A stretch of DNA of 64,000 bases from an uncultured virus (IMG/VR IMGVR_UViG_3300049448_000779) (lineage: Duplodnaviria > Heunggongvirae > Uroviricota > Caudoviricetes): IMG/VR virus record IMGVR_UViG_3300049448_000779, one strand, 5' to 3'. The first letter of the stretch is position 1; each line of letters starts with the position of its first letter. A model generated the notes under the pieces. It was not told the DNA's origin. It saw nothing but the letters and a program-made list of their open reading frames with translations, and did no database searches. Position numbers and translations under genes: made by a program. This document shows positions 10,505 through 64,000 of the stretch, piece by piece.

Positions 10505-11731
10505 CTGCGCCCCCTTAACCCCGCCCCATCTGTCCGGGCTCTCGCACAGCTACATCCAAGATATCGGCGAACTGCCGCAGCGACTTTTCGAGCTGCCTGA
10601 AGACCTCCGCTTGCGGAACGCCATCCATGTGCGCCAGCGCGGTCTCAACTTTACCGGCATTGTTCACGACGGCCACGAATGTGACCTGCCCTCCTCGCTC
10701 CCTGAGCACTTGCTGAATGCGTTCGGCCAAACCTACTTGCGGCATCTTGCCCTCCTTGGCGCGGGAATCCGTCCCCCGCGATCCCTCTCTCAAGGGTTGT
10801 CTCAGATCTCGGATCAAGAGAGAAGAGAGAAGAGATGTGAGTGTGTAGCGTCGCGGGGGACGGTTTTGATCGCTCATTCAATTCCCATCAGCCCCCGGTA
10901 TCGTTGGGCTAGCTCTGGAGGCAAGGCTAGGATTCGCTTCCGGGCTTGCTGGATGCGTCGTGCGAGCTGTTTGGGCTCTTGAGTGTCCGGCTCTTGTACG
11001 ATCTTGTCGAGCGCTTCCATGGCTCGCTTGACCTTCTTCTCCTGTCGGCGATCTCTGTAGGGCCGCTTACGCTTTGCTTCACTCCGCACGCGAAGCTCTC
11101 GTTGGTAGCCCTCCCATTCGGGCGAGCCGTGCAGGTAGCGGGTTGACAGGAGATACCCGATTGAGCAGCCGCTCCACAGGATCACCATTCGCCCGTGGAT
11201 CAGGGATGGCGGGCGTGGCGCGCAGAAGTCCCGCGCCCAAGCGAGCCATCCCTCTACTGCGGCCTTCTTGTGCTCGAGCGCCGCGGGCGAACCCAGGATC
11301 TTGATCAGCTTCAGGACCCTTGGGAAGCCGCGGGCGCGATCGACCCGGACAACCAGGTCGGCGAACCTGTCCTTGCGCTCCTCGTATTGCGCGAGCGTTT
11401 CGTACGGTTGTTGGTAGTCTTCGGGCTGCCGTTGCCACCACGGGGGCCTTGGGCCGCCCGGCCACATGAGTCCATGGGCGCCTCCTACAATCAGCTCTGG
11501 AGGCTCTAGTTGGGCTTCGAGTTCAGCCCAAAACTCTTCATGCTCTTCTTCGGTTGCGGGCGGTAGGCGCTCATGCAAGTCCGCCCTCGGGCTGCTCAAC
11601 TCCGCTTCGATCTCGTCCTTCCAAGTGCCCATTCCCCGGGTGTACACCCGAAAATACCCCGGTTCCAGCGATCCGGACTTGCCTATTGGGCAGCGTTATT
11701 CCTACCCGACTGGCCCGGTGTAATTGCACCC

Positions 11732-33055: not shown

Positions 33056-34922
33056 AGGAAGAGTACGGTAGCCTTTATCTTATGTGGGGGCTATGGCTAT
33101 GACATCTAAGACTCAAGGACTGGAGCAGTACGTCGTTACCCGTCCGGTCGTCACAGACGATCTTGATGCTGAAGAGCAGACTGTCGTGATCGCCTGCTGT
33201 ACTAGCCTTGAGGCGGCCGACGCAGCGCGCCGATTGCTGCTAGATGAGCTGGCCAGCGAGGATTCTCTCGCGCCTTAGAAACGTTTTCGATGCCCTAAGG
33301 CAGAACTCGCCCGACTCATCATCCCACCAGGAAGCAAGGAGCAGCTTCGCGGTGGCATCCATGAAGATGACGGGCCGTTCCCTAGAGCCTGTAGGGAAAT
33401 CCCTGGACATGTAGGCATGTAGATCCGTGAAGCCAGCAGCGTTACAACGCATGACGAAGGCGTTGATTCGCTCATTTCGGCTCTTGAGGTACTCAAGCGA
33501 GTATGTCACGTTTTTCATGCTCTCTGATTCACGCACGCGGCGCATCGTACGTGAACGCAACCATACTGCCAATGCTGCTTGAGTACGGCACTAAGCTCAA
33601 CGCGTTTTTATGTGGTTCATCCGACAACACTACCACTATGAACAAACACACCTCAGCTAGCTGATGCGGAGGAAGCATCGGCAGAAAGGATCACGGTATG
33701 GCCCTGTTCGCTCTTTACCGCATCCTACCCACCGAAGGCAGAATACACGTGTTATTCTCTGATGTTCGGCCCGATGGACGTTCCGCGCAACACTACTGCA
33801 CTCTGGAGTCTAGCCGACTCTGGCTAGTCAGAGAGGTAGCAGATGAACTGCGGCGGATGGGGTTCCCGCTGGAGTTCGACCGTCGAACCGACAATGACGC
33901 TGAAACAAGGCTCTTTTGCGTACATCGGATTCCCAACGGTGAGGTGCGAAGTACAGCAGACGCTGTCCGGACAGTGTGTTCACGCCATGGGCTCTCGATA
34001 CGGGTCACGACGTACGCGGGCGGAGAGCTACTACCAGCCCCTGAGCCTGCGGCCATTCATGCGCCTGCAAACGAGTCCCGCAGCAAAACAGTCTGATCGT
34101 TCCTACCGAGGGCAAGCCAAGCCAATCATTGGCTAGCCAATCCTCGGTCAGGAGGACTATAGATTCGCTGAGCGGATCTTGTCGTGGGCTGTGGCCTCGT
34201 GTTACAGCAGGCTCAAGCCATGCTCACCGAACCCGAGCGACTCCACGAGCAGCACCGGAAGATTTGCCCCGTATGCTCGACTCTAGGGGTAAGGCGCACT
34301 TGGCTCGAGTTCATGGTCCGCGAATTTACGCCAGCCGGCGAGATCATCGAGGTGCTGATCAAGCAGACGAACGAACCTCTGGAAGATAGGGACATCAGAT
34401 GGGTCCTCGGGCACATTACCTCGCTGATCACTCTTCCACCCCAACCCGCTCAACCTGGCATTGAACCTGAAGTTAAGCGGCCGAAGTTCAGCTGGGTTGG
34501 GGCAGCCCTGCTTCTCGTGATCGTCGTCTTACTGGTCGCCCTGTTCGATGACCTGCCGTTGTGACGCGAGGAAGAGGTCGGCCTCTTCTGGCGAGCACTG
34601 GCGCTCGCGGGCGACTTCTTGCACCAGCATGTACTCATCCATGTAGAGCGCTTGCACTCCGCCGAGACAGCGTTGCAGGTCGACGAAAGCTAGACTGATC
34701 TCTTCGTAGCCTAGGACCGAAGCGCGAGCGTAGGCTTGGTCGTTTAGCAGCTCCTCAAGTGTAATGAGTTGCTTCCGCAGCTCCCCGGCTGCTTCCAGCA
34801 CACCTTCTACCTCCAGCTTCATCTCGTTCGTGATTGAGTTTGCGGCGTCCACGTAATCTTGGGTGTTCACTTTTTTTGGCTACACCGGGATCGATGTTTC
34901 GACTTCCGGTGTAGATGGACCC

Positions 34923-35987
34923 ATGCCCATTACATTCCCAGTCAGTGATGTAAGCCTCGGAGAGCCCAACAAGTGGGCACAGCTGGAACTCAAGGAAGTC
35001 ATCAACAGGTCTGTTAAGGTCCAGCCCGAAGCGTGCGGGGCCAATACTGGGTCCTCGTTCCTCGCGTTCCCTGAAGATCGTTGGAACGGCACGCAGAAGA
35101 TGAACGGGTTCCTGAATGCGATCCACGTCGCCTTCGACCTCCACTACCCCCTCGTGTTGAGCCCTGACGATGTCTGGCTCGCGATCGCACAGGGGTTTGC
35201 GGCTCACGTGAACCAGCACGCCGAAGAACTGCGCAAGCAGTTCGTCGAGCATGATGGCAAGGCCAAGATCGTGATCGAGCGGAACGGCTTCCGGAAGGGC
35301 AGCCCGGACAACGATTGGATGGGCGGCTTCCATGAGTTCTCCGACAAGATCGCAGAGCACATCGGCAAGAAGCGCGACTTGCTCGTGGGTGGCTTCAGCA
35401 CGACCGGTCCGCAGGAGCGCGCCGCCTCGGAAATCGTGCTGATGGACGCGATGAAGTCGTACTTCGACTACGGCTGCAGGACGTGCTGCGGGATCCCAAA
35501 CGTCACGCTGCTCGGCACCGTGGATGACTGGACGCAGATCCGAGATCGCGCGCAGGTCCTCGCCGAGTTCAAATGCGAGGCGTGGGTGAAGTCCCTCACC
35601 GCTGTCTTGGACCGCTTCGTGGCTGCTGCGAAGGGTTCCGCGGACCCGAAATTCTGGCAGAGCCTCTACCATGAGGGCGGGGGTTCTGGGGGTCCCTACG
35701 TGACAGGGTTTGTCAACGTTTTCTTCCCCTACGTAGGGCACGGCAAGTACACGCGCAGCAACCGGGCCACGTTCGAGTGGAGCAAGGGGATCGGGCATAT
35801 GTGCGGTGGGCCGACCCCAGGGGACTTCCCGATGGGACTGTCGTCGGTCCCGTTCGAGTGGGAGTTGTTCGACCAGACCTTCCCGATGCAGTTCCTGGGC
35901 GGCTTCGTGGGAGCAACACAAGACCCGGATACCCTAGCGGTCAGACCTTCGATCGGCTGGGCGGTGGCAGACGCGCAAGCAGTGTAG
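34923..35987 (+). CDS. DUF4419-family protein
   Basis: AFDLHYPLVLSPDDVWLAIAQG, FSTT and LMDAMKSYFDY...CGIPNVTLLGTVDDW; start from GGTGTAG-N8-ATG. Confidence 0.85.
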   Translation: MPITFPVSDVSLGEPNKWAQLELKEVINRSVKVQPEACGANTGSSFLAFPEDRWNGTQKMNGFLNAIHVAFDLHYPLVLSPDDVWLAIAQGFAAHVNQHAEELRKQFVEHDGKAKIVIERNGFRKGSPDNDWMGGFHEFSDKIAEHIGKKRDLLVGGFSTTGPQERAASEIVLMDAMKSYFDYGCRTCCGIPNVTLLGTVDDWTQIRDRAQVLAEFKCEAWVKSLTAVLDRFVAAAKGSADPKFWQSLYHEGGGSGGPYVTGFVNVFFPYVGHGKYTRSNRATFEWSKGIGHMCGGPTPGDFPMGLSSVPFEWELFDQTFPMQFLGGFVGATQDPDTLAVRPSIGWAVADAQAV

Positions 35988-36743: not shown

Positions 36744-38042
36744 ATGAGCCTAGGAACCCTTTTGATTCTCCCTGGCCTCCCCGCTGTCCGTACGAAGCGC
36801 GGGGGGCTGATCATCACTAGGAAGTTCGTAGATGGTATGCGCAGCTACGCCGAGCGTTGGCCGGGTCGTGTCGCTACCTTGCTGAATGAGACCACTCAAG
36901 TCAGCAATAACCTGGACAACATCGAGGTCATGCCTGGCGAGCCTTTGCCGTTCGAGATCGACACGGTCAAGTTCGGCTCCACGGGAATGTACCGCCGGAT
37001 CGACCAGCTCGGCGATGTCTCGTGCGTGCTCGGCGGGCCTCACCACCAGCTGCACGGGCTTCCGCGCGAACTTCGCGCCCGCGGGATCATCTCCGTGCTG
37101 TGTTTCGAGTACTCGTTGAAGACGCGGCTTGACGTTATGCGCTCAGAGACGCGCAATCCGATTCGCTTGTTGCGTCGCGCTGCGTGGGAGGCGCGCGAAG
37201 AAATCCTGACGTTGTGGGACGTCACGGCGGCCCACGGGGTCCAATGCAATGGGACCCCGACATTCAATCGCTACCGGCGTCTCAGCGCTTCGGCCCATCT
37301 CTACTTCGACGCTCGGACTCCATCGAACGGCTTCGCCACCGAGAAGCATCAGCAGTTGCGTGCTGAACGTCTGCTGGGCAACGCGCAGCTGCACATTGCG
37401 TTCTCCGGGCGGCTTCTCAAAATGAAGGGCGCCCACCACCTGGTACAGATCGCACAAAGCCTTTTGCGGCGCCGTGTCAGGTTTCGAATGACGATCTGTG
37501 GTGGGGGTCCGCTTGCGAAGCCGATCGCACTCAGCATCAAGCGTGCTGGCCTCTCTTCTTACGTGAAGTTGGCCGGCACGCTCGACTTCGAGCGCGAGCT
37601 GCTTCCGATGATGCGCGAGGAAGTCGACTTGTTCATGGCCCCTCACGTGCAGGGCGACCCGAGCTGCACGTACCTCGAGACGCTCGCGTGTGGCGTGCCG
37701 ATCGTTGGCTATGCGAACGAGGCGTGGTCCGGGTTGCTCGATCGCGCAACCGTTGGCTGGGAGTCGCCACTCGGCAAGCCAGAGAAGCTAGCCAACTTGA
37801 TCGCTGGCCTCGATCGAAACGAAATCGTGGAACGCTCCGCGGAGGCTCTGAGATTTGCCAGTGAGCACAGCTTTGAGAGCACGTTCTCGCGCCGTGTCGA
37901 TCATCTAGTGGATCTCGTTCGTGAGCACAGAGCTTTCAGGGAGGTGGGTTATGAGGACCCTGGTTCTGTACGGGGGAACGGGAAAGAATTACCCCGGGGA
38001 GAGACTGGCTCAGGATCTCGGGATACCGTTATTCGACGGTGA
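36744..38042 (+). CDS. GT-B (GT4-like) glycosyltransferase
   Basis: FSGRLLKMKG and DLFMAPH...YLETLACGVPIVG motifs. Confidence 0.85.
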   Translation: MSLGTLLILPGLPAVRTKRGGLIITRKFVDGMRSYAERWPGRVATLLNETTQVSNNLDNIEVMPGEPLPFEIDTVKFGSTGMYRRIDQLGDVSCVLGGPHHQLHGLPRELRARGIISVLCFEYSLKTRLDVMRSETRNPIRLLRRAAWEAREEILTLWDVTAAHGVQCNGTPTFNRYRRLSASAHLYFDARTPSNGFATEKHQQLRAERLLGNAQLHIAFSGRLLKMKGAHHLVQIAQSLLRRRVRFRMTICGGGPLAKPIALSIKRAGLSSYVKLAGTLDFERELLPMMREEVDLFMAPHVQGDPSCTYLETLACGVPIVGYANEAWSGLLDRATVGWESPLGKPEKLANLIAGLDRNEIVERSAEALRFASEHSFESTFSRRVDHLVDLVREHRAFREVGYEDPGSVRGNGKELPRGETGSGSRDTVIRR

Positions 38043-41163: not shown

Positions 41164-43353
41164 ATGCTAGTCCAGAAGATCTACCTCCGGCCCTGCAACC
41201 AAGCCTCTATGGATCTCGCTCTCGGTGAGCTGATTCTGTATGGCGAATCACGGAACGCGTTGACGCGCATCCACAATAAATGGATGCGAATAGGTAACGC
41301 GCCGCTTGTCCCCGAGTACCAGACGATCGCTCAGGACTACCGAAATCACCCTCCCAAGACCGGCCGCCGCCCTACGCTACGATGCTTGGTGCAGTGCACG
41401 GGGCGACGGATCAAGGTGCACGACGATGATCCCAGCCGTGAAGAGAAGCTGCAAAAGGCAGCGGGGAAGGCGTGCAGAATGCAGCTTACCCAATCAGGGG
41501 GCGTAGAAACCAAGCTGGACAAGCTCCGGGAGAGCTGGGGGCTCGTAGAAGTCCTGGAGCATGATCGCCAGCGCTACCGAGTTCGGTGCTCGCAGCCCAA
41601 GTCGGCGCGGTCCCTGATTCCATCGCTCGAAAAGTGGATCAAAGCCAGTGCTCCGCTCGATGCCAAGCTGGACAAGTTCCGTAAGCGCTGGGGGCTCGTA
41701 GAAGTCCTGGAGCAGGATCATCAGAGCTACCGAGTTCGGTGCTCGCAGCCCAGATCGGAGCGAGCCCGGACTAAATCGCTCAAAAAGTGGGTCAAAGTCG
41801 GCGAGTCGCTCGACGCCAAGCTGGACAAGCTCCGTGAACACTGGGGGCTCGTAGAAGTCCTGGAGCAGGATCAGCAGCTCTACCGAGTTCGGTGCTCGCA
41901 GCCCAAGTCGGCGCGACCTCAATCGCTTGAAAAGTGGATCAAAGCCAGCGAGTCGCTCGACGCCAAGCTGGACAAGCTGCGCGAGAAGTGGGTCACGATC
42001 GAGATCCAGGACCGAGATCAAGGGCGTAGTGACCACGCGGAACTGCGTGCCGCCGATATGCGTGCCGTCTACGGTCGCCACGTCGAGGCCGGCGGCTATT
42101 ACGGGACCTTCCATCTTGCAAACGAGGCTGTGGCCTCCGCCGCCAAGGCCACCGAGGCTCGTGACTCTTTTGGGCGCTTGATCGTGCGTGAGCTGCGGGA
42201 GTCCGAGACCTCCGACGACGGGCGCGCAGCGATCGACCTCTCGCGCTTCCGCTGGGACGAGCAAGACCCGTGGATGGTCGAAATCCATGGCACCCGCTGG
42301 AGCTGCCATCGAGATCAGCTGATGGGCCGCCCACGCACTCCGGCCCAGGAGGCGGTGGGCCGCGAACGAGACAAGCTTGACCCGCGTCGGCCGCCCACGG
42401 ACGCCCGGGTCGTACGCGCGCACCTTCAGCGCGATCGGATGAGCCCTCCGAGCCGGCTCAACATCCGATGGAATTGGTACCTCGTCCTTACCCTTGATTG
42501 TGATTCCCCGGAGCGCGAGGTCTCCGAGGAACGCACAGAAGCTGGCCTCGACCTCTGCTGGCGTCAAACCGATGATGGCCTCTCGTACCGCGTAGCGTAC
42601 CTCGCAGACTCACGCGGGCGGGAACGCGAGATCACCGTGCCACGCACAGCGGTATCAGCGCTGCTGCACTACGAGCACATCAAATCCCTGGCTGATCTGG
42701 AGGCAGACCGTCTGCGCAAGATCCTGAAGCTCAGTGACCGCACCGGTCACCGTACGCTCGTGCAGCGTGCTCTAGAGCGTGATGGCCAACCCAGCCCCGA
42801 TTACCGGGATCGCGACTCCAGCACGTGGAATGCCTCCGAGATCGCGCATCATATGATCCACCTCGACGAGTACGCGCACCACGGCCGCAGCAATGCTCTC
42901 GCCCAGAGAGACGGGCACTACCTCCACGAGATACACACAATCCTGCGCGAGCAGAAGGTGATCTACTGCGAGGACATGGAGGGCGACAAAGCGCTGGTCA
43001 CCAAAGAAGGGGGCGGCAAGGCTCGCGATCAGCGGCAACAAACGGCGCCGTTCACCTTCCTGCGCTTGCTACAGCGCGAGGCGCCCAAGTTCGGCGCTGT
43101 AATCGAGCTGCGTGAGCCCGCTTACACATCGCGCATTTGCGACGTTTGCGGGCATGACATGGGCGCCTCGAGCCAGCTATGGCGGCGGTGTCAGAAGTGC
43201 GGGACACGGCACGATGTGGATGCGCTGGCGGCTCGCAATATCCGGTGTGGTGTGAGCGGCCCGGTGACACCTGAACTCCAGGGTGTGGGTCCTCACAATG
43301 ACAATGTTCACGAGGACAGGAAGCCGCTCCGAAAGCGACGAACGAAGCATTAG
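41164..43353 (+). CDS. tnpB: TnpB/Cas12-superfamily RuvC protein (Cas12m/V-U1-like motif I) with internal tandem repeats
   Basis: RuvC-I AGLDLCWR, RuvC-II IYCEDM, PAYTSRICDVC...CQKC zinc finger, RuvC-III HDVDALAARNI. Confidence 0.8.
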   Translation: MLVQKIYLRPCNQASMDLALGELILYGESRNALTRIHNKWMRIGNAPLVPEYQTIAQDYRNHPPKTGRRPTLRCLVQCTGRRIKVHDDDPSREEKLQKAAGKACRMQLTQSGGVETKLDKLRESWGLVEVLEHDRQRYRVRCSQPKSARSLIPSLEKWIKASAPLDAKLDKFRKRWGLVEVLEQDHQSYRVRCSQPRSERARTKSLKKWVKVGESLDAKLDKLREHWGLVEVLEQDQQLYRVRCSQPKSARPQSLEKWIKASESLDAKLDKLREKWVTIEIQDRDQGRSDHAELRAADMRAVYGRHVEAGGYYGTFHLANEAVASAAKATEARDSFGRLIVRELRESETSDDGRAAIDLSRFRWDEQDPWMVEIHGTRWSCHRDQLMGRPRTPAQEAVGRERDKLDPRRPPTDARVVRAHLQRDRMSPPSRLNIRWNWYLVLTLDCDSPEREVSEERTEAGLDLCWRQTDDGLSYRVAYLADSRGREREITVPRTAVSALLHYEHIKSLADLEADRLRKILKLSDRTGHRTLVQRALERDGQPSPDYRDRDSSTWNASEIAHHMIHLDEYAHHGRSNALAQRDGHYLHEIHTILREQKVIYCEDMEGDKALVTKEGGGKARDQRQQTAPFTFLRLLQREAPKFGAVIELREPAYTSRICDVCGHDMGASSQLWRRCQKCGTRHDVDALAARNIRCGVSGPVTPELQGVGPHNDNVHEDRKPLRKRRTKH
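41511..41990 (+). repeat. In-frame tandem repeat (153, 153, 147 bp plus a partial fourth unit)
   Basis: Unit starts CAAGCTGGACAAG at 41511, 41664, 41817 and 41964; encodes KLDKLR..WGLVEVLEQD....RVRCSQP. Confidence 0.95.
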
Positions 43354-46846: not shown

Positions 46847-47575
46847 TTAGAGCCCCATGAAACCGTGGACGAGGACGCCCCGGCCATTCTTGCCGTCGTT
46901 CTCGGTCCAGTACATCAACCCGACCAGGGCGCCGTCGTCATCAAAGATCGGGCCTCCGCTATCCCCGTGGCAGACGCACCCAGCCAAGAACAACACGCGA
47001 TTGAGTTGGTGGAGAGCGATCGCCGGTCGCTGTAGAGGCAGGGTCTCCGGCCCTTGAATGCACCCGTACCCTTCTAGAGTCAACGCCATTGAGGCTTTAG
47101 TGGCAATCTCGGCTGGCTTGATCTCTAGTGGCTCGGCCACCTGGAGCAGCGCGATGTCTTGCTGAGGGTCTGGACTACGGAGCGTGACCTCAAAGCTCCG
47201 TCCATCGATTGTCGACACCGAGTCCCCAACTAGAGTTCCACCATTCTGCTCGATGCAGTGCTTGGCCGTCAGCACCGATCGAGGCCCGACGACAACCCCA
47301 GAACAGCCCAAGCTGTGTTCTTCGGTCTCTACCGGCGTTGTGATCGTAAACCGGTGCGTGATCCGCACAACCTGTGGATTGACGCTGTACAGGAAGGGTC
47401 GACAGTATTGGGACTCGTCGAAAACGAAGTCGTTCAGGTTTTCCTCGGCTACCCCTGGCAACCTCTCTACTGGCGTCCGGAACTGGAGCGTGCCAGGCCT
47501 CTTCAGCGGGGCAGGCACAAGGCCAAAAGCGGCGCAGGCGAGACCTGTAGCAAGCAGCCTGACGACACTGGGCAC
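46847..47575 (-). CDS. Secreted trypsin-like (S1) serine protease
   Basis: VLTAKHC, DIALL and GDSGGP triad motifs; signal-like N-terminus. Confidence 0.9.
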   Translation of the reverse strand: MPSVVRLLATGLACAAFGLVPAPLKRPGTLQFRTPVERLPGVAEENLNDFVFDESQYCRPFLYSVNPQVVRITHRFTITTPVETEEHSLGCSGVVVGPRSVLTAKHCIEQNGGTLVGDSVSTIDGRSFEVTLRSPDPQQDIALLQVAEPLEIKPAEIATKASMALTLEGYGCIQGPETLPLQRPAIALHQLNRVLFLAGCVCHGDSGGPIFDDDGALVGLMYWTENDGKNGRGVLVHGFMGL

Positions 47576-52649: not shown

Positions 52650-53579
52650 ATGGCGTGCTTAGCTAGCTCGACCGGGGAAAATCGTTTCAGTCCAGCTGAC
52701 GTCTCAAGCGCGGACTTCGGTCAAGCGCTCGAGCAAGACGGCTACGTGATCATCGAGGACGTGCTGAGCGCTGACGAGCTGCTCGAGCTGAACGCACAGA
52801 TCTCCGGCCAGCTCGCGAGCACCATGCCTGACTACGGCAATGCCTTCATGGGAGAGAAAACCAAGCGATTCGGCCGTCTGCTCTATCGCATCCCAGCAAG
52901 TCGCGAGATCGTCCGGCACCCATTCGTGCTGAGCGTGCTGAACTCAACCCTTCGGCTGTTCAGCCCGACATACCAGGTACACTTCACCTCCGTGATGCAT
53001 GTGATGGAAGGCGAAAAGGCCCAGGTCCTGCATCGAGACATCTCGCCCTTCCCCAACCAAGGTCCGACTGTGGTCATCGCGACCATGTGGGCAGCCAGCG
53101 CCTTCACGCGCGACAACGGCGCGACCGTGCTTGTCCCGGGCAGCCATTTGTGGCCCGACGCTCGTTTCCCCACTAAAGAAGAGCTGCGCGTCGCAGAGAT
53201 GCGCGCTGGCTCGCTGCTGATCTACCGAGGCAACCTCATCCACGGCGCTGGCGCCTGTAAACGCGGGTCTCGCACCGGCGTGGCTCTCCAGTACTGCGTC
53301 GGGTGGATGCGTCAAGAAGAGAATCAGTACCTTGCGGTTCCGCTGGAAGTAGCCCGCACACTGCCCGAGGATCTTCAACGGATCATGGGTTACGACCTGG
53401 CAGCACGTCACTGGGGTTATGTTGACCAGCTGCACCCCCTGAACTTCCTACACGAGACTGATCGCTATGGCGGGCTGGACCCAGACGGGTACCAATTCCC
53501 AGGGCAAGTGGTGGCGCTGCGGGCCGTTCCCGATGGGATCCACATTGATCATCGTTACCCAATCACACTCGACGATTAA
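52650..53579 (+). CDS. PhyH-family 2OG-Fe(II) dioxygenase
   Basis: LEQDGYVIIEDVL, QVLHRD, FTRDNGATVLVPGSH, HGAG and GWMRQEENQYL. Confidence 0.9.
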   Translation: MACLASSTGENRFSPADVSSADFGQALEQDGYVIIEDVLSADELLELNAQISGQLASTMPDYGNAFMGEKTKRFGRLLYRIPASREIVRHPFVLSVLNSTLRLFSPTYQVHFTSVMHVMEGEKAQVLHRDISPFPNQGPTVVIATMWAASAFTRDNGATVLVPGSHLWPDARFPTKEELRVAEMRAGSLLIYRGNLIHGAGACKRGSRTGVALQYCVGWMRQEENQYLAVPLEVARTLPEDLQRIMGYDLAARHWGYVDQLHPLNFLHETDRYGGLDPDGYQFPGQVVALRAVPDGIHIDHRYPITLDD

Positions 53580-55411: not shown

Positions 55412-56053
55412 ATGCTCTGGAGAATCGATGCAAGCGGACCATTTGCGCTCTGGACGCCGCCATGTTTTCGTGCGGAACGCTACAGTCAACTCGTTGGCTC
55501 CCATGATGCTATGGCGGGCCTTCTGCGCGGGGTGTTAGGTCACCGCGGAATGAACTGGACAATCCATGCAGTCCACATCCTCAGTGAGCCAAGATACTTG
55601 GGTCTCACCCAAAACGAACTGAAGTTTGACGGCGTCGGACCATTCAGTCGACATGAACGACAACATACGCAACGGCGCAATACCTATCTGCTCGATGTCC
55701 GGTACATCATCGAGGCAAGCATCATCCTCTCGAGCCGCGCCGATCCAAGCGATACCATCGAGAAGTTCAATTCGATGTTTGGCGAGCGCCTGCAGAAAGG
55801 GAAGCAGCGACGACAGACCTACTTTGGGATTCGCGAGTGCATGGCATTAGTTGACCCGTGGGGCGGGCCAGTGCCACCCGCTATCAACGTAACGCAAGAG
55901 CTGGGCATCTGCTACTACGGCACGGATTTCGACGATCCGGAGACCCCGCAGTACTTTGCGCCTCTCTCCGTTATGAGCGGGGTCGTCCACTATCCGAGCT
56001 GGGATCATGTTCGCAGCCTTGGGATTGCCCGCCGTACGCGAAGGAGCGCGTAG
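55412..56053 (+). CDS. cas5: Type I-C Cas5 (Cas5c/Cas5d), divergent
   Basis: GPFALWTPP..RAERYS, NE, QR...LLDVRYIIEA and YFGIREC motifs. Confidence 0.9.
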   Translation: MLWRIDASGPFALWTPPCFRAERYSQLVGSHDAMAGLLRGVLGHRGMNWTIHAVHILSEPRYLGLTQNELKFDGVGPFSRHERQHTQRRNTYLLDVRYIIEASIILSSRADPSDTIEKFNSMFGERLQKGKQRRQTYFGIRECMALVDPWGGPVPPAINVTQELGICYYGTDFDDPETPQYFAPLSVMSGVVHYPSWDHVRSLGIARRTRRSA

Positions 56054-56055
56054 CC

Positions 56056-57774
56056 ATGGACCTACTTGCTTCGCTCACGCGCTATGGCGAACGAGTCGGA
56101 TTGAAGCCGCTCCTCCGTGACAAGAAGTTCGTCGAGGTCTGGTGTCTTGACCTTGACACAGGGGCGTTAGCACACGTCAAAAGTACGACGCTGAAACTAC
56201 CCCAACCTGTGGCGCGCGGCTCTAATGCCGCCACTACCCCGAACCGCACCTTCGACTACGCGAAGTACGTCACGAATCGAGAGTCAGCGTTCTGGGGTCT
56301 TCTGCTGGCCATACTGAATGAGTCCAGAACGCTGACCGCCAAAGTCAACGCTCTTCTGGCCAACACGAACTGGCACGTGAAACTCGTCACCGACGAAATC
56401 ATCTTCACTGACGGGATTGGCCATGCTCATACCCTGAGTGCGACAGCAGACGTGGTCCTAATGTGTAAGGGCCAAGCGTTAGCCGAGCACCAAGTTGTAC
56501 AAAAATGGTTATCCGTACAGACCGATGATGGCATCGGGACGGCTGCGTGCCTCATTACCGGCGAGCAGCGTCCCATCTCGCGCCTGCATCACGGGATCCG
56601 AGCCGGCACGGACAAACTCGTCTCTCACAATGAGTCATCATCTTGCTATTTTGGCCTGAAGCCGAGCCAAAACTTTCAGGTCTCGGTGAGAGCAGCGGAG
56701 CTGTACGCTTCCGGTCTTTCCTACTTGATGGACACTCGCCGCGAACCGGCGAATTCGATGATGATCGTTAAGGACGTGTCCTTGGTGGTCTGGCCAGATC
56801 GCGAAGGGATCACTCATCCCATCATTTCCGCCGCGATCACAGTGCTGCGCACGTTCCCGGCCGGCGCTTCTAAACCCAAAGAGCAACAGGCGGCCTTGGC
56901 CAAACTAGAAATTGCCTGGCGCGAAATCGATGCTACTGCTGACACTGACAGCACAGACCTGTGCATGGCGATTCTTGGGTTTCGGATGAATCGCTACATA
57001 CCAATTGCGTATGGGCACACGACTGCCGCACAGTTGAAAACAGCTCTGCAGTTGTTTCGCGCGGAGTTTGAAGGGTCCACGTTCCGCCAAGTTGCTGGCG
57101 TCTGGATCAGCGAAGCCGGCAAGGTCCTAGATGATGTGCTCTATACGGTTCTTTGGGCCGTTCTGACTGGCAAGCCCTACCCACTCAAAGTGACACACCT
57201 TAATCGGCACAATGTCCGCGACTACACAAAATTCCGTTGGTTCAATGCCTACAATCACCGAAAAGGTGCACCCCTGATGTCGTCATACAAGAAAATCTCT
57301 AAGGAGTTCGAGCAGGCACCGACACGTGACCAGTATTACAACCCTGAGTTGTTGGCGCAGCTGAACAAGTTCTATTTGTTCGGGCAACTGGTCGACGTCT
57401 ACTGTCGGCTCAAACAGCTCGCGCAACATAAGAACTCGGTCAAGCCGGCAGTTCAACTGAAGATCGCCCTGGGCTCCCCGCAGCGTATCTACTCGCGGAT
57501 GCTCGAAGACGGAGTGTTTCAGGTCGAGAAAATCCGCCAGAAGGGTCGCAATCCCGAATGGGAACGCGAATTCAACCGCATCGTGGCAGATTACTACAGA
57601 GGTGGCATTGGCACCCTTCCAGCCAGGCTGTCAACCGAGGAGCGCGAACTCGTTACCCTCGGCTATTGGAGCCAGAAGCTGTACGCCCAGCATCTCTTGA
57701 CTCACTGGAGCATACTCCGCCTCAGAAAAGAAGACCGCAGCAGTGATGGGGCTGCCCCCGCTCCAGCTGAATGA
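56056..57774 (+). CDS. cas8c: Type I-C large subunit Cas8c (Csd1), divergent; probable internal Cas11c start at 57277
   Basis: CLITGEQRPISRLH...LVSHN...NFQVSVRAAELY..GLSYL; C-terminal YLFGQL...LGYW; lies between cas5 and cas7. Confidence 0.85.
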   Translation: MDLLASLTRYGERVGLKPLLRDKKFVEVWCLDLDTGALAHVKSTTLKLPQPVARGSNAATTPNRTFDYAKYVTNRESAFWGLLLAILNESRTLTAKVNALLANTNWHVKLVTDEIIFTDGIGHAHTLSATADVVLMCKGQALAEHQVVQKWLSVQTDDGIGTAACLITGEQRPISRLHHGIRAGTDKLVSHNESSSCYFGLKPSQNFQVSVRAAELYASGLSYLMDTRREPANSMMIVKDVSLVVWPDREGITHPIISAAITVLRTFPAGASKPKEQQAALAKLEIAWREIDATADTDSTDLCMAILGFRMNRYIPIAYGHTTAAQLKTALQLFRAEFEGSTFRQVAGVWISEAGKVLDDVLYTVLWAVLTGKPYPLKVTHLNRHNVRDYTKFRWFNAYNHRKGAPLMSSYKKISKEFEQAPTRDQYYNPELLAQLNKFYLFGQLVDVYCRLKQLAQHKNSVKPAVQLKIALGSPQRIYSRMLEDGVFQVEKIRQKGRNPEWEREFNRIVADYYRGGIGTLPARLSTEERELVTLGYWSQKLYAQHLLTHWSILRLRKEDRSSDGAAPAPAE

Positions 57775-57805
57775 TCACGAGACCCATACAGAAACAAAAG
57801 GCACT

Positions 57806-58000
57806 ATGACAAACAAAACAGACTCTGACGACGACGTTAGGTGGTTCGGTCTTGTGTCCACGAAGTCAGTGGACACCTCGATCTCCGGACCTGTGCAACT
57901 GGGCGTTGACCATGAAACCTTGCCAAGCCGTATCCGTATTACGCCTATCAAGAGCATTCAGGTTCTCGGGCGCATAGTCCGGCTTGAGCCTAACGAGTAA
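57806..58000 (+). CDS. 64-aa protein homologous to the Cas7c core motif (mini-Cas7)
   Basis: DVRWFGLVSTKSVDTSISGPVQLG vs cas7 DVRWFGAVLTKPVNWPITGPIQMG; AAAAGG upstream of the ATG. Confidence 0.65.
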   Translation: MTNKTDSDDDVRWFGLVSTKSVDTSISGPVQLGVDHETLPSRIRITPIKSIQVLGRIVRLEPNE

Positions 58001-58041
58001 ACGCGAGACCAACCCACTCTACCCTAAGGACTGAAAGCACC

Positions 58042-59004
58042 ATGACAACAGCAACAGTTACGACTCTGCCAGTTAAATCCGAGATCTATGACAGGCGTAC
58101 GGACATGGTCCTAATCACCAGCGCGATCTGGAGCGTGCTTCAAGGCAACCCTGACGAAGATAACGCGCGCCGCCAAGACCCAGACACTTTGCAGGGTATT
58201 ATGACCCCCCAGTGCCTCAAGTACAAATTGCGCCAGTGGTTGGAGCAGCATGGCTACGCACTGTTCATTAAGCCTGGCGGTGCGGCTTTGGAGCAGTTGA
58301 TCTATAATGTGCTCACGGATGTTGGAATCGATCCCAGTAAAATCTCTGCCGAGGCCGACGACGAAGACGCAGATGAAGACAACGAGACTGAAGGCAAGCC
58401 CAAAAACAAGGGCAAGAAGAGCAAGAACCGCGTACTGCGACAAGATGAGATCCGCGACACTGTGCGTCGTCTTTGCGCTGATTACGCGGATGTTCGTTGG
58501 TTCGGCGCTGTCCTGACGAAGCCAGTGAATTGGCCCATCACCGGCCCCATCCAGATGGGATTTTCGATGAGCGTTGATCCGGTGTACAGCCAAGAGCTGG
58601 GCATCACTCGCTCCGCCGTGACCAGAATCGACGACCTGAAATTGAAGAATCGAGACATGGGTCGTATGTCCATGATCCCTTTCGAGGTTTGTACTACGCC
58701 GATCTCGATTGATCCGTTTCGGGCTCGCGCCACTGGGTTCACGTATGCCGACCACGAAATGCTTATCAGTGGACTCCGGGAAATGTACGACATGACCCGG
58801 TCTACGCTCCGCTCGGGTGTGTGCGCCGAGAAGCTGGTAATCTTCCATCACGATAGTCCCTACGGCAACGCTCGGGCGCTCAAGCTGTTCCGCCGCGTCC
58901 AGATTAAGTCGAGTGTGCCCAACTCGCGTTCCTTCAAAGACTGGACGGTTGACGTCGATACCACTGGGCTCAATGGCGTATCCGTCGAGGTTCTCGATCT
59001 CTAG
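58042..59004 (+). CDS. cas7: Type I-C backbone Cas7c (Csd2)
   Basis: QGNPDEDNARRQDPDT...CLKYKLR, DVRWFGAV, GPIQ, ITR, MGR, TGFT and HDSPYGNA. Confidence 0.92.
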   Translation: MTTATVTTLPVKSEIYDRRTDMVLITSAIWSVLQGNPDEDNARRQDPDTLQGIMTPQCLKYKLRQWLEQHGYALFIKPGGAALEQLIYNVLTDVGIDPSKISAEADDEDADEDNETEGKPKNKGKKSKNRVLRQDEIRDTVRRLCADYADVRWFGAVLTKPVNWPITGPIQMGFSMSVDPVYSQELGITRSAVTRIDDLKLKNRDMGRMSMIPFEVCTTPISIDPFRARATGFTYADHEMLISGLREMYDMTRSTLRSGVCAEKLVIFHHDSPYGNARALKLFRRVQIKSSVPNSRSFKDWTVDVDTTGLNGVSVEVLDL

Positions 59005-59013
59005 TTAGCGGAG

Positions 59014-59051
59014 GAGCGGGGCTGCGGGCTCAAGTGCTCTCAGCCCCGCTC
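59014..59051 (+). promoter_or_regulatory. 11-bp hairpin between cas7 and the helicase gene
   Basis: GAGCGGGGCTG...CAGCCCCGCTC perfect inverted repeat ending 10 nt before the helicase ATG. Confidence 0.65.
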
Positions 59052-59061
59052 ATCACTCTAT

Positions 59062-61470
59062 ATGCAATTGCGCCACTACCAGACCGATGACTTCCTGAAA
59101 CTCGTAGAGGCTCTATCGGTTCTCAAGAGCTTGGGTGTGGATTACGCTACAGGGGGTGGCAAAACCGTTTTGAGCCTGGCGGCCGCGGCCTGGGTGATAC
59201 AGAAAGGCGTATTTGATCGTGCGCTGGTTTTGACGCTTGGTACCGCAATCGTGAACCAGTTCCTTGCGTTGTCCAACGAGTGGATCCACCCCACGAACGA
59301 TGAGTTCGAGCCATTCTCTCTTGGCGAGATCAGGTCGGCATTGAATGGGTTGGAGTTGGAGCGTTGGCTCACGCCCTTGCTCACTGATGACCCGCGTCCG
59401 CGCATACTCGTCACTACGCACCAGATGTTCACAACGAATCTTTCCTCGGTCGAAAAGTCTCTACTACGTGACCGTCGGACGTTGATCGTTGTCGATGAGC
59501 CACAGTATGCCCCTTGGATCGAGGGTAAGGCGGCAGCATGCGAACCCGGCCAGGAGGATGAGGGTCGCCAGCAGCACATTCTCGGTCGGGCGATCACTCG
59601 TTTGCAACTTGCCGGCTCAGTGGTGGCTAAGTTTACCGGAACTCCGAGTCGAACTGATGGGCTACCGGTTTTCTCCAAAGACGACTACACAGAGGTGACA
59701 CGCTCTCTTCACCAGCTGATGCTCTACGGGATGTGCCCTCAGTATCTGCACAGCAGAATCGTGCACGTCGATAGCAGTTCAGTTGATGACGGCGACACCT
59801 GCTTGGCTCCGCTGGACCCTAACAAGGGTAGCGAGGCTGTTCGTTCTATGAGGAATGACTACGATTGGATTCCCGCTTGCACTAGAGTCAAACCCGGGTC
59901 CCGTGAAGACAATCAGGAAGTGGTTGCCAAGATTCTCGCGCGTGATCCGAGCGCCATCAACGCCTCCGGCGACAATGCTACAGAATATTTTGATGCGCTG
60001 GGTCGAGAGTCTGCATGTCTCAAAAACAGAACTGCGGTCTACAGCGACTACCAGACCAATTTAGTCGGGATGACGCGGCCGGTCACAGGGGTGGACTCGC
60101 CCTCGCGAGCCCTGGGAATCTTCTATGGAATCCCAAAATCCATGAACGTGTTCAGGCAGTTCATGGGGCGAATTCTCCGGCGCAAGGTGGGGGACGACGG
60201 AAAGCCACTCTATATTGGCTACCCTGAAGCGTGGCTGAACCGGGTCCAGCTGGTGTTCGTGATTGGCGGCTTACCCAGTGAAGCCCATCGTAGGGAAGAG
60301 CATCTCGGCATTCTCTTCAGAGCGCTAGCGCTGGCTGAGTCTCTCAATCAAGCGGGGATGCTTGGCCGCATGTTCGCGCGCTACTATGACGGTCTGACTC
60401 GGACTCCTGGCCGCGGTCTTCCACCAGGTAAGGAGAAGGAGATCCTCGACGTCGTCACAGGAGAGGCTCCAACACTCTTGCTAGAAGCGGAGCTGGACAT
60501 TTTAGGCACGGCATCAGAGCTGGATGACGTTGGGTATCAGACTCTAAAGCTTGATGGAAAATTCAGGTATATGGAAGGCTGGCTCCGAGCGCACACTCGA
60601 TTGATGGCCGAGGCAGAAGGCGTTCCGCAGTCTGGCATCCAGGCGATCATCGACGCGGCGGTACTGAAACACCTGCCTAGCATCAAAGCCCTGTTGACTG
60701 CACGTACGATGGCTCAGCCGCAGCATGAGACGCGGGTACAGGCAGTCTTAGAGCAAATCCCAGACCAGTCGCTGCAAGACCAGGTACAGGCACTGTTCGA
60801 GGAGTTCAAGGCTGACGTTTGTGCGTTAGACAACAGCGCCTATGTCCTGGACGCTCGGCTGATTGAATACCATCGGACCAAGGCCGCGCTGATCTTTAAG
60901 CGGGTGCAGCCTCTTGATTCGACCGACGCGATTCTGGAGCGCGTTCAGGCGCACCGCGATCGCCACGACGGGCAATACCCCGAACTAGATCAGCGCGATC
61001 CGATTGACTCTCGCATCACCTTCAAGACGCATGACCAGCATCTAAGGACCGGCCATTACGCCGAGTTCACGGGCGAGCTTGGTGAGTTGCTCTACATGAG
61101 ATGTGAGCGCACCTCTTGGTGGGACGATGCCCGGGAGGTTGAAGCCCTCTATCACAAGCTGTTGCGCAATGGGTCGCCGGAGGTGGCGGCTGTTATCAAG
61201 AGCGAAGGCAAAGACAAGCTGGGAAGAATGCGGGCCGCCTTTGGTGACCGCGTGGTGGTGCGGTACTATCCTCGCGCCCTGCTTGTTGCAACCGCGAGAG
61301 ATAGCACTGGCGACTTCATCTGCTCTGAGGACTTCCTCCGACAGCTGACACTTCCAGAAGCCCAGAGGTTAGGGGGCGCTCAACGGCTCGTCACCGTGCT
61401 CAAGGCGCATCAGTTGACGTTCGATACGAGAGGGATGACGGCGGTCCGCGAAAGGTTGGGCTTCCTGTGA
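59062..61470 (+). CDS. SF2 helicase (Res/RadD-like, no HD domain) occupying the cas3 position
   Basis: Q-motif LRHYQ at residues 3-7, Walker A ATGGGKT, DEPQ, TGTPSRTDG, motif VI QFMGRILR. Confidence 0.85.
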   Translation: MQLRHYQTDDFLKLVEALSVLKSLGVDYATGGGKTVLSLAAAAWVIQKGVFDRALVLTLGTAIVNQFLALSNEWIHPTNDEFEPFSLGEIRSALNGLELERWLTPLLTDDPRPRILVTTHQMFTTNLSSVEKSLLRDRRTLIVVDEPQYAPWIEGKAAACEPGQEDEGRQQHILGRAITRLQLAGSVVAKFTGTPSRTDGLPVFSKDDYTEVTRSLHQLMLYGMCPQYLHSRIVHVDSSSVDDGDTCLAPLDPNKGSEAVRSMRNDYDWIPACTRVKPGSREDNQEVVAKILARDPSAINASGDNATEYFDALGRESACLKNRTAVYSDYQTNLVGMTRPVTGVDSPSRALGIFYGIPKSMNVFRQFMGRILRRKVGDDGKPLYIGYPEAWLNRVQLVFVIGGLPSEAHRREEHLGILFRALALAESLNQAGMLGRMFARYYDGLTRTPGRGLPPGKEKEILDVVTGEAPTLLLEAELDILGTASELDDVGYQTLKLDGKFRYMEGWLRAHTRLMAEAEGVPQSGIQAIIDAAVLKHLPSIKALLTARTMAQPQHETRVQAVLEQIPDQSLQDQVQALFEEFKADVCALDNSAYVLDARLIEYHRTKAALIFKRVQPLDSTDAILERVQAHRDRHDGQYPELDQRDPIDSRITFKTHDQHLRTGHYAEFTGELGELLYMRCERTSWWDDAREVEALYHKLLRNGSPEVAAVIKSEGKDKLGRMRAAFGDRVVVRYYPRALLVATARDSTGDFICSEDFLRQLTLPEAQRLGGAQRLVTVLKAHQLTFDTRGMTAVRERLGFL

Positions 61471-62192
61471 GTACCTACGATAAGGATGCTTGGCGAAAGT
61501 TCAACGTTCACTTTCTCTCGAGTTGCCGGGGACTCTGGTCCGATGGAAAACTCAAGTTCAGCTACTACGAACTGGTCGGACTGTCAGGGTCCAAGATGTA
61601 TGATCTGCTCAAGGAGATGCTGTATACACCGAAACAGTTCATCGGGGTGGATCAAAGCCCTGAGGTGGTGCTGTACCATCGTATGAATCGGGCTCCCTGG
61701 ACAACGTGTCTGGTCAAGGACGGCTACCTTAAGGCGGAGCAGGTGGCGTCTCTTTCGGCGAGTCAGCGCGAGCCATTCGGGATTGCTCCGTATCCGATCG
61801 CGATCTACGGCTTCGACGACCACGCGAGTATTGGCCTGCAATCTTGGTGGGACACGGAAGCAAGCCAGCTTCGGCAGATCGTCGCCAAGACACTAGAACA
61901 GACTGGCGTGTGTTGCTTGATCTTGAACAACACTCTCGACCGAAACCCGGACCGGCACAAGGCGGTAGCGGAACACACGCGCCGACTCTGCTTAGCGTTC
62001 GAAGGTTGGGGCCTAAAAGAAGAGGCCCTACTCGGACCTAACCGCAGATTCTTGAACTGCATCGTCGAGAGACCGTCAGGGCATTTCGGTGGCTACGAAG
62101 TATACAAGAGCCTCGACCGCGCCCTGCGCATGGCGACGATTAGACTTGAGTTCACTAAGACCCGCGGCGTGCGGGTATGGAAAGGCGAGTGA
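61467..62192 (+). CDS. Putative class I SAM-methyltransferase-fold protein, coupled to the helicase
   Basis: GTGA overlap with the helicase stop; YYELVGLSG, FIGVDQSPEVV, VKDG, IAIYGFDD, CLILN and a terminal beta-hairpin, in Rossmann MTase order. Confidence 0.5.
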   Translation: MSTYDKDAWRKFNVHFLSSCRGLWSDGKLKFSYYELVGLSGSKMYDLLKEMLYTPKQFIGVDQSPEVVLYHRMNRAPWTTCLVKDGYLKAEQVASLSASQREPFGIAPYPIAIYGFDDHASIGLQSWWDTEASQLRQIVAKTLEQTGVCCLILNNTLDRNPDRHKAVAEHTRRLCLAFEGWGLKEEALLGPNRRFLNCIVERPSGHFGGYEVYKSLDRALRMATIRLEFTKTRGVRVWKGE

Positions 62193-62197
62193 GAGAT

Positions 62198-62416
62198 ATG
62201 GAACGATTGGACTCTGAGAAAGTGTATCAGTATATCGGCAAGTCGGTTCGCACCACCCAGGACATCGCGAAGCACTTCAAGGTGCGCGCTGGCCAGGCTG
62301 CGGCTGCTGTTGCGATTCTCCGCATCAAGGGGACGGTGGTGCCGGCAATTCCCAAGAAGGATTTTGAGGGGGTCAGCCGATGGTGCCGGACTTCGAGCGC
62401 TTCCGCGGCTCGCTAA
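62198..62416 (+). CDS. Small winged-HTH-like protein (72 aa)
   Basis: EKVYQYI...TTQDIAKHFKVRAGQAAAAVAILRIKGTV helix-HTH-wing pattern. Confidence 0.6.
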   Translation: MERLDSEKVYQYIGKSVRTTQDIAKHFKVRAGQAAAAVAILRIKGTVVPAIPKKDFEGVSRWCRTSSASAAR

Positions 62417-62581
62417 CCCCAGGGAGCGCTCGCGTTCGGGTGGTTCTTTGACAATTCCATATGTTATCTGCTCAGCCTCGCGTGCTCTCCCAAGTGAGGT
62501 GGGGGCATCAAGCACGCCTGGTGGCAGGCGCTCGCAGAAGACGCTGCGAGTTGCTTGGTTTGAGTGCCCGTAGCGACGAGG
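62417..62581 (+). promoter_or_regulatory. CRISPR leader with a boxA-like element (62443-62454) and multibranch structure
   Basis: GTTCTTTGACAA; nested inverted repeats across 62476-62581. Confidence 0.65.
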
Positions 62582-64000
62582 GTAGCAAGGGGCTTTGGAG
62601 CCCCGAGTGATTGAAATATATAGCCGCGGATTGTCCGGATCCGGACGTCGAGGTAGCAAGGGGCTTTGGAGCCCCGAGTGATTGAAATGTGACCAGCTCA
62701 GCCTGCCTGGTTAGTTCCTCTAAGTAGCAAGGGGCTTTGGAGCCCCGAGTGATTGAAATGAGGGCGACCGACTGCATGAAGACGAGCGTCTTGAAGTAGC
62801 AAGGGGCTTTGGAGCCCCGAGTGATTGAAATGTCCTGGAGCGACCCACTGATCGGCTCGTATTCGCGCTTGTAGCAAGGGGCTTTGGAGCCCCGAGTGAT
62901 TGAAATAGGGCGGCGGTGGAACGGGCCAGTTCGAGGAAGTGGGTAGCAAGGGGCTTTGGAGCCGCGAGTGATTGAAATGCCGCGACCCCGGAAGGCTGCG
63001 TCCCGCAGGTCGACGTGTAGCAAGGGGCTTTGGAGCCCCGAGTGATTGAAATCTACCAGAGCCTGCGCGAGCGGCTCGAGCAGATCATCGTAGCAAGGGG
63101 CTTTGGAGCCCCGAGTGATTGAAATTCCAGCTCCCCCTTCACTTCATCGAGCCCAGCGACCGCGTCGTAGCAAGGGGCTTTAAGAGCCCCGATTGGTTGA
63201 AATTTGACGTAGTGCGTCTCGGCGATCTCAACCGAGTGCCCGGTAGCAGGGGACTGTGAGGCCCCGATTGGTTGAAATATCGATGGCCAGATTCTTGACC
63301 GCTTCCTCCGACCGCGTAGCAGGGGGCTGTGAGGCCCCGATTGGTTGAAATAACTCAAACGGATCACGCCGGACCCGAACACCCCAAGTAGCAGGGGGCT
63401 GTGAGGCCCCGATTGGTTGAAATGCGAGCACCCGGGAGCCAGCCTTCTTCGCACCCAGGTAGCAGGGGGCTGTGAGGCCCCGATTGGTTGAAATGCCGCA
63501 GGCGTCCTTCTGAACGCCGTCGACAACGGGAGTAGCAGGGGGCTGTGAGGCCCCCGATTGGTTGAAATCTCCGCGTGCGCGGCGTAACGAGCAACAAGCG
63601 GTGCGGGTAGCAGGGGGCTGTGAGGCCCCCGATTGGTTGAAATGGGAGGCCGTCTGCGAACCACTTTTGAGCGCCCCGCAGTAGCAGGGGGCTGTGAGGC
63701 CCGATTGGTTGAAATAACCTCTTCGGCGAGCTGGCCCTCGATCTCGACCTAGTAGCAGGGGGCTGTGAGGCCCCCGATTGGTTGAAATTTGAATGGTCAC
63801 GGTCGCATAGAGCGACTCAAACACGGGTAGCAGGGGGCTGTGAGGCCCCGATTGGTTGAAATAAGCGGACATCGAGCGAGTTGGTCTCGCAGTCGAGGTA
63901 GCAGGGGGCTGTGAGGCCCCGATTGGTTGAAATCCCGTGAAGGGGAGGACACGTTGTCCAGATTGGTTCGTAGCAGGGGGCTGTGAGGCCCCGATTGGTT
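62582..64000 (+). CRISPR. CRISPR array: 20 repeats (last truncated by window end), 19 spacers of 35-41 nt, two repeat types
   Basis: Repeats 1-8 GTAGCAAGGGGCTTTGGAGCCCCGAGTGATTGAAAT; repeat 9 hybrid; repeats 10-20 GTAGCAGGGGGCTGTGAGGCCCCGATTGGTTGAAAT; the TTGAAAT 3' end gives + orientation. Confidence 0.99.

Follow-up and report, generated by a model that had tools for sequence, protein, structure and literature searches.

We find that one end of a 64,000-nt stretch of DNA from an uncultured virus of the Caudoviricetes (IMG/VR record IMGVR_UViG_3300049448_000779), the whole of which we call the window, carries a type I-C-like CRISPR-Cas locus in which the effector genes cas5c, cas8c and cas7c are followed by a helicase gene that does not encode Cas3, by ORF241, whose product has a predicted class I S-adenosylmethionine (SAM)-dependent methyltransferase fold, and by a small conserved gene, a leader and a CRISPR array (Table 1). 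All genes of the locus share the plus strand. An initial annotation, made from the sequence alone, had described this arrangement as a co-oriented operon running from cas5c to the array, and the Pfam, PADLOC and repeat analyses largely bear it out.

Table 1. Features of the CRISPR-Cas locus and their positions in the window (ORF, open reading frame; SF2, superfamily 2; wHTH, winged helix-turn-helix).
Feature	Position	Strand	Evidence or remark
cas5c (213 aa)	55412..56053	+	Pfam Cas_Cas5d E 9.7e-11; PADLOC Cas5c E 8.6e-29
cas8c, large subunit (572 aa from likely start)	56056..57774	+	Pfam Cas_Csd1 E 4.6e-26; PADLOC Cas8c E 5.4e-23
ORF85 ("mini-Cas7")	57743..58000	+	PADLOC Cas7b E 8.2e-5 (weak)
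cas7c, backbone subunit (320 aa)	58042..59004	+	Pfam Cas7 E 4.1e-50
SF2 helicase/translocase, ResIII/HsdR type, HD-less (802 aa)	59062..61470	+	Pfam ResIII E 2e-11
ORF241, predicted class I SAM-methyltransferase-fold protein	61467..62192	+	4 nt overlap with helicase stop
ORF79, conserved small protein (79 aa) and possible wHTH regulator	62177..62416	+	homologues in 3 related loci
Leader (165 nt) with conserved box GTTCTTTGACAATT	62417..62581	+	box at 62443-62456
CRISPR array, 20 repeats, last one cut by window end	62582..64000	+	repeat families and Tandem Repeats Finder

Judged by their Pfam and PADLOC matches, which are solid, the genes at the head of the locus encode the type I-C effector set Cas5c, Cas8c and Cas7c. 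The reading frame of cas8c is open from position 55858, and its likelier start is the ATG at 56056, which stands right behind the cas5c stop and has the ribosome-binding site GAAGGAG ahead of it; cas5c and cas8c also adjoin in two of the related loci described below (L001 and L005). The NCBIfam scores are 65.4 bits for Cas5c (cut-off 85), 68.5 for Cas8c (curated cut-off 218.65) and 154 bits for Cas7c against Csd2 (cut-off 182.25). Because all three proteins score under the equivalog cut-offs of NCBIfam, we consider them to represent a divergent I-C-like lineage. Four soil or rhizosphere sequencing runs contain the locus genes without a single difference, and the window form of ORF241 (P0008) is recorded on a contig of up to 453,480 bp.

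The same gene families stand together in three further loci. L001 is part of a complete phage genome of 411,618 bp with terminal repeats (G001) and reads cas5c-cas8c-cas7c-helicase (771 aa)-ORF256-66-aa protein-array, while L005, from a complete genome of 437,331 bp that also has terminal repeats (G002), reads array-cas5c-cas8c-cas7c-helicase (690 aa)-ORF238-85-aa protein-array. L002, a contig of 4.5 kb, holds a cas7 fragment and then helicase-ORF256-69-aa protein. The initial annotation had proposed a neighbourhood check of whether the helicase and ORF241 co-occur with cas5c/7c/8c, and the association is seen in all four loci that could be read: helicase, ORF241 family member and small protein accompany Cascade in each of them (the Cascade part of L002 being the cas7 fragment only), and the helicase stop and the start of the ORF241-type gene overlap or abut (1–4 nt) in four out of four. 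As the three genes are found together in every locus inspected (four), we regard their products as conserved partners of Cascade. Identity of the helicase homologues to the window protein is 77, 48, 38 and 23%; close homologues of ORF241 are 80–50% identical to it, and the ORF241 homologue of L005 matches the hidden Markov model (HMM) of the family with an E value of 5.8e-70. Upstream of cas5c in L001 (3065–4024) lies a gene with a Myb-like DNA-binding domain (E 1.6e-6), which is unrelated to the gene upstream of the locus in the window.

Relatives of these proteins are few in the collections that we searched. A word-indexed search of 5.8 billion protein clusters returned six ORF241 relatives and only three helicase relatives, the latter even when it was fed with a profile; when 1.84 billion representatives were searched with a profile, 124 clusters of the ORF241 family came out. 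GenBank phages contained no match to the locus by DNA or protein. Scans of viral contigs with the helicase as a single protein, and with two ORF241-family members from large contigs, gave nothing, and a degenerate motif pattern recovered only two already known phage contigs among them. Applied to genome contigs, this pattern matched 11 times, and by HMM none of the matches encodes an ORF241-family member; with a pattern this narrow, this is weak evidence that the family is absent from prokaryote genomes.

The helicase is, by sequence comparison, of the ResIII/HsdR type. It is not a Cas3, in line with the initial annotation, which had placed a non-Cas3 helicase in a variant type I-C operon. Its Pfam match to ResIII is confined to residues 1–146, and no Cas3 model of NCBIfam or PADLOC matches it at E ≤ 0.01. 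Aligned by hhalign, it matches E. coli HsdR (EcoKI) with a probability of 95.2 over 138 columns and E. coli Cas3 with a probability of 91.6 over only 67 columns around motif I. Profile matches to XPB, Cas3 and HsdR in the PDB all have E values of ~0.01, the Cas3 chains being no better than the others, and the neighbours of the protein in the ESM Atlas (language-model and structure based) are viral ResIII/DEAD helicases and R subunits of type I restriction systems. Five helicase homologues agree without exception in the blocks that we take to be the Q motif, TGxGKT, DExQ/H, TGTP and QxxGRxxR, and since these ATPase motifs are kept, the protein is likely to be an active SF2 ATPase.

In its structure model ORF241 has a Rossmann-like, seven-strand class I SAM-methyltransferase fold, so the methyltransferase-like nature first assigned to it holds at the level of the predicted fold. 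Enzymes of this class bind SAM through motifs I–IV, a Gly-rich loop after strand 1 and acidic residues after strands 2, 3 and 4. In the model the sequence E35-x-x-G38-x-x-G41 follows strand 1, D62 ends strand 2, D85 comes after strand 3 and D117 stands at the end of strand 4. These positions are kept in most of 56 relatives (E/D35 in 54, G38 in 51, G41 in 46, D/E62 in 53 and D/E85 in 50), and D117, like N154, is invariant in all 56. Because the SAM-motif positions are conserved in this way, a SAM-binding enzyme fits, and we suggest that ORF241 probably binds SAM. The structures nearest to the model are protein, small-molecule and RNA methyltransferases.

The array in the window consists of 20 repeats of 36–37 nt that are spaced 71–77 nt from start to start. 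The repeats are heterogeneous (eight of variant A, one hybrid and eleven of variant B), and the array switches from one variant to the other midway, via the hybrid repeat at ~63167–63203. Both variants form a hairpin and then a single-stranded tail that ends in ATTGAAAT. Across the window, L001 and L005 the hairpins have folding energies of −12 to −17 kcal/mol and the tails measure ~9–13 nt, their end being (A/G)TTGAAA(T/C) in L001 as in the window and GTTCCAAC in L005, and the hairpins of the L001 and L005 arrays are kept despite changes on both sides of the stem. Canonical type I-C repeats carry a 3′ handle of the ATTGAAAC type; the repeats found here are I-C-like in having such a handle behind their hairpin, which is stable. 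No Rfam family matched them, and the repeat of the window was not found in viral contigs. The phage-borne arrays span 20 to about 65 repeats: G002 has one of 28 and one of 26, and G001 has an array of ~4.7 kb (189,028–193,706; 11178–12953 in L001) with several repeat variants in a genome without Cas1. Although the genes are identical in the four soil and rhizosphere runs, the contigs diverge once they reach the array, where they break off, leave out units or have different spacers. These differences could reflect spacer turnover or, equally, a second array with the same repeat in the same genome.

Upstream of the array, the 14-nt leader box GTTCTTTGACAATT does not vary between the leaders of three loci (window, L001 and L002) and occurs only once in the window. 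It lies ~110–140 nt upstream of the first repeat and includes a TTGACA-like hexamer. A related box, GTTCCTTGATAGTT, occurs in L005 at 1414–1427 and 10933–10946, ~110–125 nt upstream of both arrays of that locus. A scan of the leader with the sigma-70 consensus called no promoter. We propose the box as a candidate element that may serve as a promoter or as a binding site for the small protein encoded just before it.

This small protein, ORF79, was first read as a wHTH gene. That it is a conserved small protein is clear from its homologues at the same position in three other loci (L001, 65% identity; L002, 67%; L005, 38%), but the wHTH fold is weakly supported: the best match in a family scan is to FaeA-like, with an E value of 0.026 in one out of four homologues, and a profile of the protein matched nothing in the PDB. 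The claim that a mini-Cas7, ORF85, is a component of the system did not stand. ORF85 contains a stretch of 31 aa that is 52% identical to residues 150–180 of the window's own Cas7c, and it is unchanged across the soil runs. It has been found in this window only, with no counterpart in L001 or L005, where the gaps between cas8c and cas7c are 112 and 51 nt. From this comparison we suggest that a rearrangement probably left ORF85 behind as a fragment of Cas7, and that it is not a conserved component.

No gene for DNA cleavage by Cas3 or for spacer acquisition was recognized near the locus or in its complete relatives. Cas3_HD and Cas1 were found in neither G001 nor G002, and cas3_core and Cas4 were not found in G001, while control genomes gave matches in every one of these searches; Cas2 was not searched for in the relatives. 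In the window, we scanned with Pfam 42 out of 57 upstream ORFs of at least 150 aa and four more, leaving out overlapping and antisense frames, and none of these 46 encodes Cas1, Cas2, Cas3, Cas4 or an HD protein. The statement of the initial annotation that the window has neither an HD nuclease nor cas1/2/4 therefore stands for the 46 upstream ORFs scanned.

We suggest that the locus is a type I-C derivative of huge phages that has no adaptation module of its own, in which an HD-less motor interferes at the R-loop without its own nuclease and together with a methyltransferase-fold partner, and we consider this reading to have about an even chance of being right. In this model Cas5c would cut the array transcript at the repeat hairpins, and Cas5c, Cas8c and Cas7c would, as expected from their family membership, assemble into Cascade on the CRISPR RNA (crRNA) and form R-loops on matching DNA. 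The HD-less ResIII/HsdR-like SF2 ATPase would stand in for Cas3, and the overlap of the two genes suggests that it is produced together with the methyltransferase-fold protein. Loaded at the R-loop, the motor could translocate or unwind and so block transcription or replication of the target, much as CasDinG does in type IV-A; the targets would be host genes or a competing mobile element. As its obligate partner, the methyltransferase-fold protein would probably bind SAM and serve either to modify nucleic acid close to the target or to link motor and Cascade, and the small protein would probably regulate the array via the conserved leader box.

Several observations weigh against this model. 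What the system does, with which partners and on which targets we infer from gene content and conservation. For none of the spacers was a protospacer found in GenBank phages, the window, the related loci or both complete genomes; the matches were 12–16 nt long and at chance level. The association with cas genes rests on four loci, to be set beside the 124 clusters of the ORF241 family, and the window ends inside the array, so that our survey covers the genes before it. Pfam assigned no family at E ≤ 0.1 to any of 56 ORF241-family members, and an ORF241 profile matched nothing in the PDB. Finally, ResIII-type motors of restriction systems are usually paired with a nuclease, and residues ~440–802 of the helicase have no Pfam match at E ≤ 10. 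Because these C-terminal ~360 residues have no assigned fold, and a nuclease could hide there, they are the main hole in the claim that the system has no nuclease.

The alternative that follows from this hole is that targets are destroyed, either by a cryptic nuclease in the C-terminal region of the helicase or by a borrowed one, a host Cas3 or another host nuclease recruited to the R-loop of the phage Cascade; in both cases the helicase would feed DNA to it. Besides the region that has neither family nor fold, the resemblance of the helicase to restriction-type motors speaks for such an outcome, and the I-C-like hairpin with its tail ending in ATTGAAAT or C could make the repeats compatible with a host I-C system. 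However, the L005 helicase (690 aa) is missing much of the C-terminal tail, and the whole locus is still kept there. Across the five homologues the C-terminal region has only 12 invariant residues, among which no recognizable nuclease motif was seen, and if the work were done by host Cas3, with a helicase of its own, there would be little reason to conserve a dedicated one. We regard target destruction as unlikely, though as an alternative to be taken seriously.

A second alternative moves the weight to ORF241, with RNA-guided methylation as the main output: Cascade and the motor would deliver the methyltransferase-fold protein, which would mark the target DNA or RNA by means of SAM. The predicted class I fold with its conserved SAM-motif positions is consistent with this, as is the tight coupling to the helicase gene in all four loci, and helicase–methyltransferase pairs form the core of type I and type III restriction-modification systems and of DISARM. 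On the other hand, a common fold does not show function. DNA methyltransferases have DPPY or PCQ as their motif IV, and ORF241 has neither; its profile shows no similarity to HsdM, and its nearest structural neighbours act on proteins, small molecules or RNA. Guided methylation as the main output thus seems to us improbable. A broader form of the idea, to which we give no greater credence, is that Cascade, motor and ORF241 make up an RNA-guided, SAM-dependent writer: the motor, loaded at the R-loop, would carry the enzyme along the target, where the enzyme would modify DNA, RNA or bound protein, huge phages would use it against rivals or hosts, and spacers would be gained in trans.

A role in counter-defence is another option, in which the phage Cascade would draw off host I-C crRNAs or Cas3, vie with the host for them, or make use of spacers made by the host, and so disarm the host system instead of targeting DNA itself. 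The phage has no recognized adaptation genes and yet carries I-C-like repeats, and anti-CRISPR mimicry by phage-encoded Cas homologues is proposed in passages of an earlier study (Altae-Tran et al., 2023; PMC10910872). The large phage arrays with leaders of their own nevertheless argue for the phage's own guides, and a decoy would need neither a helicase nor a partner kept beside conserved ATPase motifs, so we think this option quite improbable. That the locus is a decaying, non-functional type I-C remnant, left after loss of cas3 and cas1/2/4, could be read from the Cas7 fragment within the operon and from the heterogeneous repeats, but it is barely credible: in all six genes the frames stay open and the motifs are conserved at 23–50% identity across complete phage genomes, and the operon is identical in four runs.

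To our knowledge, all characterized type I systems destroy DNA via Cas3 or an inserted nuclease. Here, several huge phages have retained Cascade alongside another motor and a partner with a methyltransferase fold. If the system indeed silences or marks its targets, it would represent, beside type IV-A, a second nuclease-independent class 1 route and would make a compact programmable module; if the marking is done by an RNA-guided writer, it would be a programmable system for epigenetic or chemical marking. If instead a nuclease is hidden in the locus, restriction-type motors would be linked to CRISPR targeting. In any of these cases, large and variable arrays in genomes without Cas1–Cas2 bear on how phages acquire spacers.

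Outside the locus, the window starts with a fragment of a tyrosine integrase (1–606) and has a 14-nt tandem repeat, GTGCCCCGAGCGTA, in 10.9 copies at 1427–1575. Further genes with a family are those for a DUF4419 protein (34863–35987), a group 1 glycosyltransferase (36744–38042), a trypsin-like protease on the minus strand (46847–47575) and a PhyH-family dioxygenase (52650–53579). The other ORFs, among those scanned, are mostly without a family, and such orphans are usual in huge phages. A gene on the plus strand 12 kb upstream of the locus (41164–43353) encodes a 729-aa Cas12/TnpB-like protein, with matches to the Pfam TNB domain (E 5e-12) and to guided_TnpB of NCBIfam (E 8.6e-10, far under the cut-offs), and contains an in-frame tandem repeat of 153 nt in 3.2 copies at 41510–41985. 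No array was found beside this gene, and solved Cas12j structures gave no sequence match; a second, CasPhi-like system is reported for such phages, and this gene may represent it.

Among known systems, type I and type III restriction-modification and DISARM resemble the locus in that a ResIII-type motor adjoins a methyltransferase-fold protein. The locus differs from them in having no recognizable nuclease domain or specificity subunit, in the lack of HsdM-like features in ORF241, and in its match to DrmD, which has an E value of 0.096; target recognition is presumably supplied by Cascade instead of a specificity subunit. A pairing of this kind may have been recorded before, as Table S3 of Altae-Tran et al. 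(2023; PMC10910872) lists a "(methyltransferase + cascade)" module on a metagenome contig in which the gene labelled as a methyltransferase is ~820 nt long. This is near the size of the ORF241 family, and the match is one of label and coordinates only, so that the identity of the two is unverified. Beyond this label, the published text that was covered, figures excluded, gave us no account of the methyltransferase-fold partner. Nor did the passages of the 2025 CRISPR classification that we consulted mention this variant, and literature searches on Biggiephage and on systems said to "lack Cas3" gave no characterization of it.

Type IV-A with CasDinG is reported to act by nuclease-independent silencing (PMC11519345). 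It is alike in combining a class 1 effector with a dedicated helicase, without a recognized nuclease or an adaptation module, on mobile elements and with a proposed role in conflicts between them. In contrast to type IV-A, the Cascade of the window is of the I-C type and not Csf, the helicase is ResIII/HsdR-like and not DinG (the csf4 model reached an E value of 0.11 in one of two helicases scanned at E ≤ 1), and there is an extra methyltransferase-fold partner. With canonical type I-C (Cas3, Cas5c, Cas8c, Cas7c, Cas4, Cas1 and Cas2) the locus shares the order of the Cascade genes, the presumed processing by Cas5 and a hairpin repeat with an ATTGAAA(C/T) tail. It departs from that system in having no Cas3, either as HD domain or as helicase, and no Cas4, Cas1 or Cas2 among the scanned ORFs of the window, in the sub-cut-off scores of its Cas proteins and in its repeat length of 36–37 nt.

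The closest likeness is to a type I-C variant of huge phages in which an unidentified helicase replaces Cas3 and which has no Cas1 or Cas2 (Al-Shayeb et al., 2020, Nature 578:425; PMC7162821). The initial annotation had named such loci as a possible precedent, and that paper confirms it; its statement that the methyltransferase-like gene, the wHTH and the mini-Cas7 belong to no subtype known to it overstated the novelty, as the layout had been published there. The variant is described in these passages as having a Cas5d-like Cas5 and no Cas6, in phages that also carry CasPhi (Cas12j). Our locus is likewise phage-borne, with a Cas5d-like Cas5, a non-Cas3 helicase and no Cas6, Cas1 or Cas2 found, in genomes of >400 kb, and the Cas12/TnpB-like gene of the window would agree with the second, type V system mentioned there. 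By contrast, the methyltransferase-fold protein, the small protein and the leader box are not named in the text and legend passages of that paper, although its drawing may show such genes without naming them (PMC7162821). In conclusion, the locus is a real and conserved system, and a further example of a kind that has been published but is uncharacterized.

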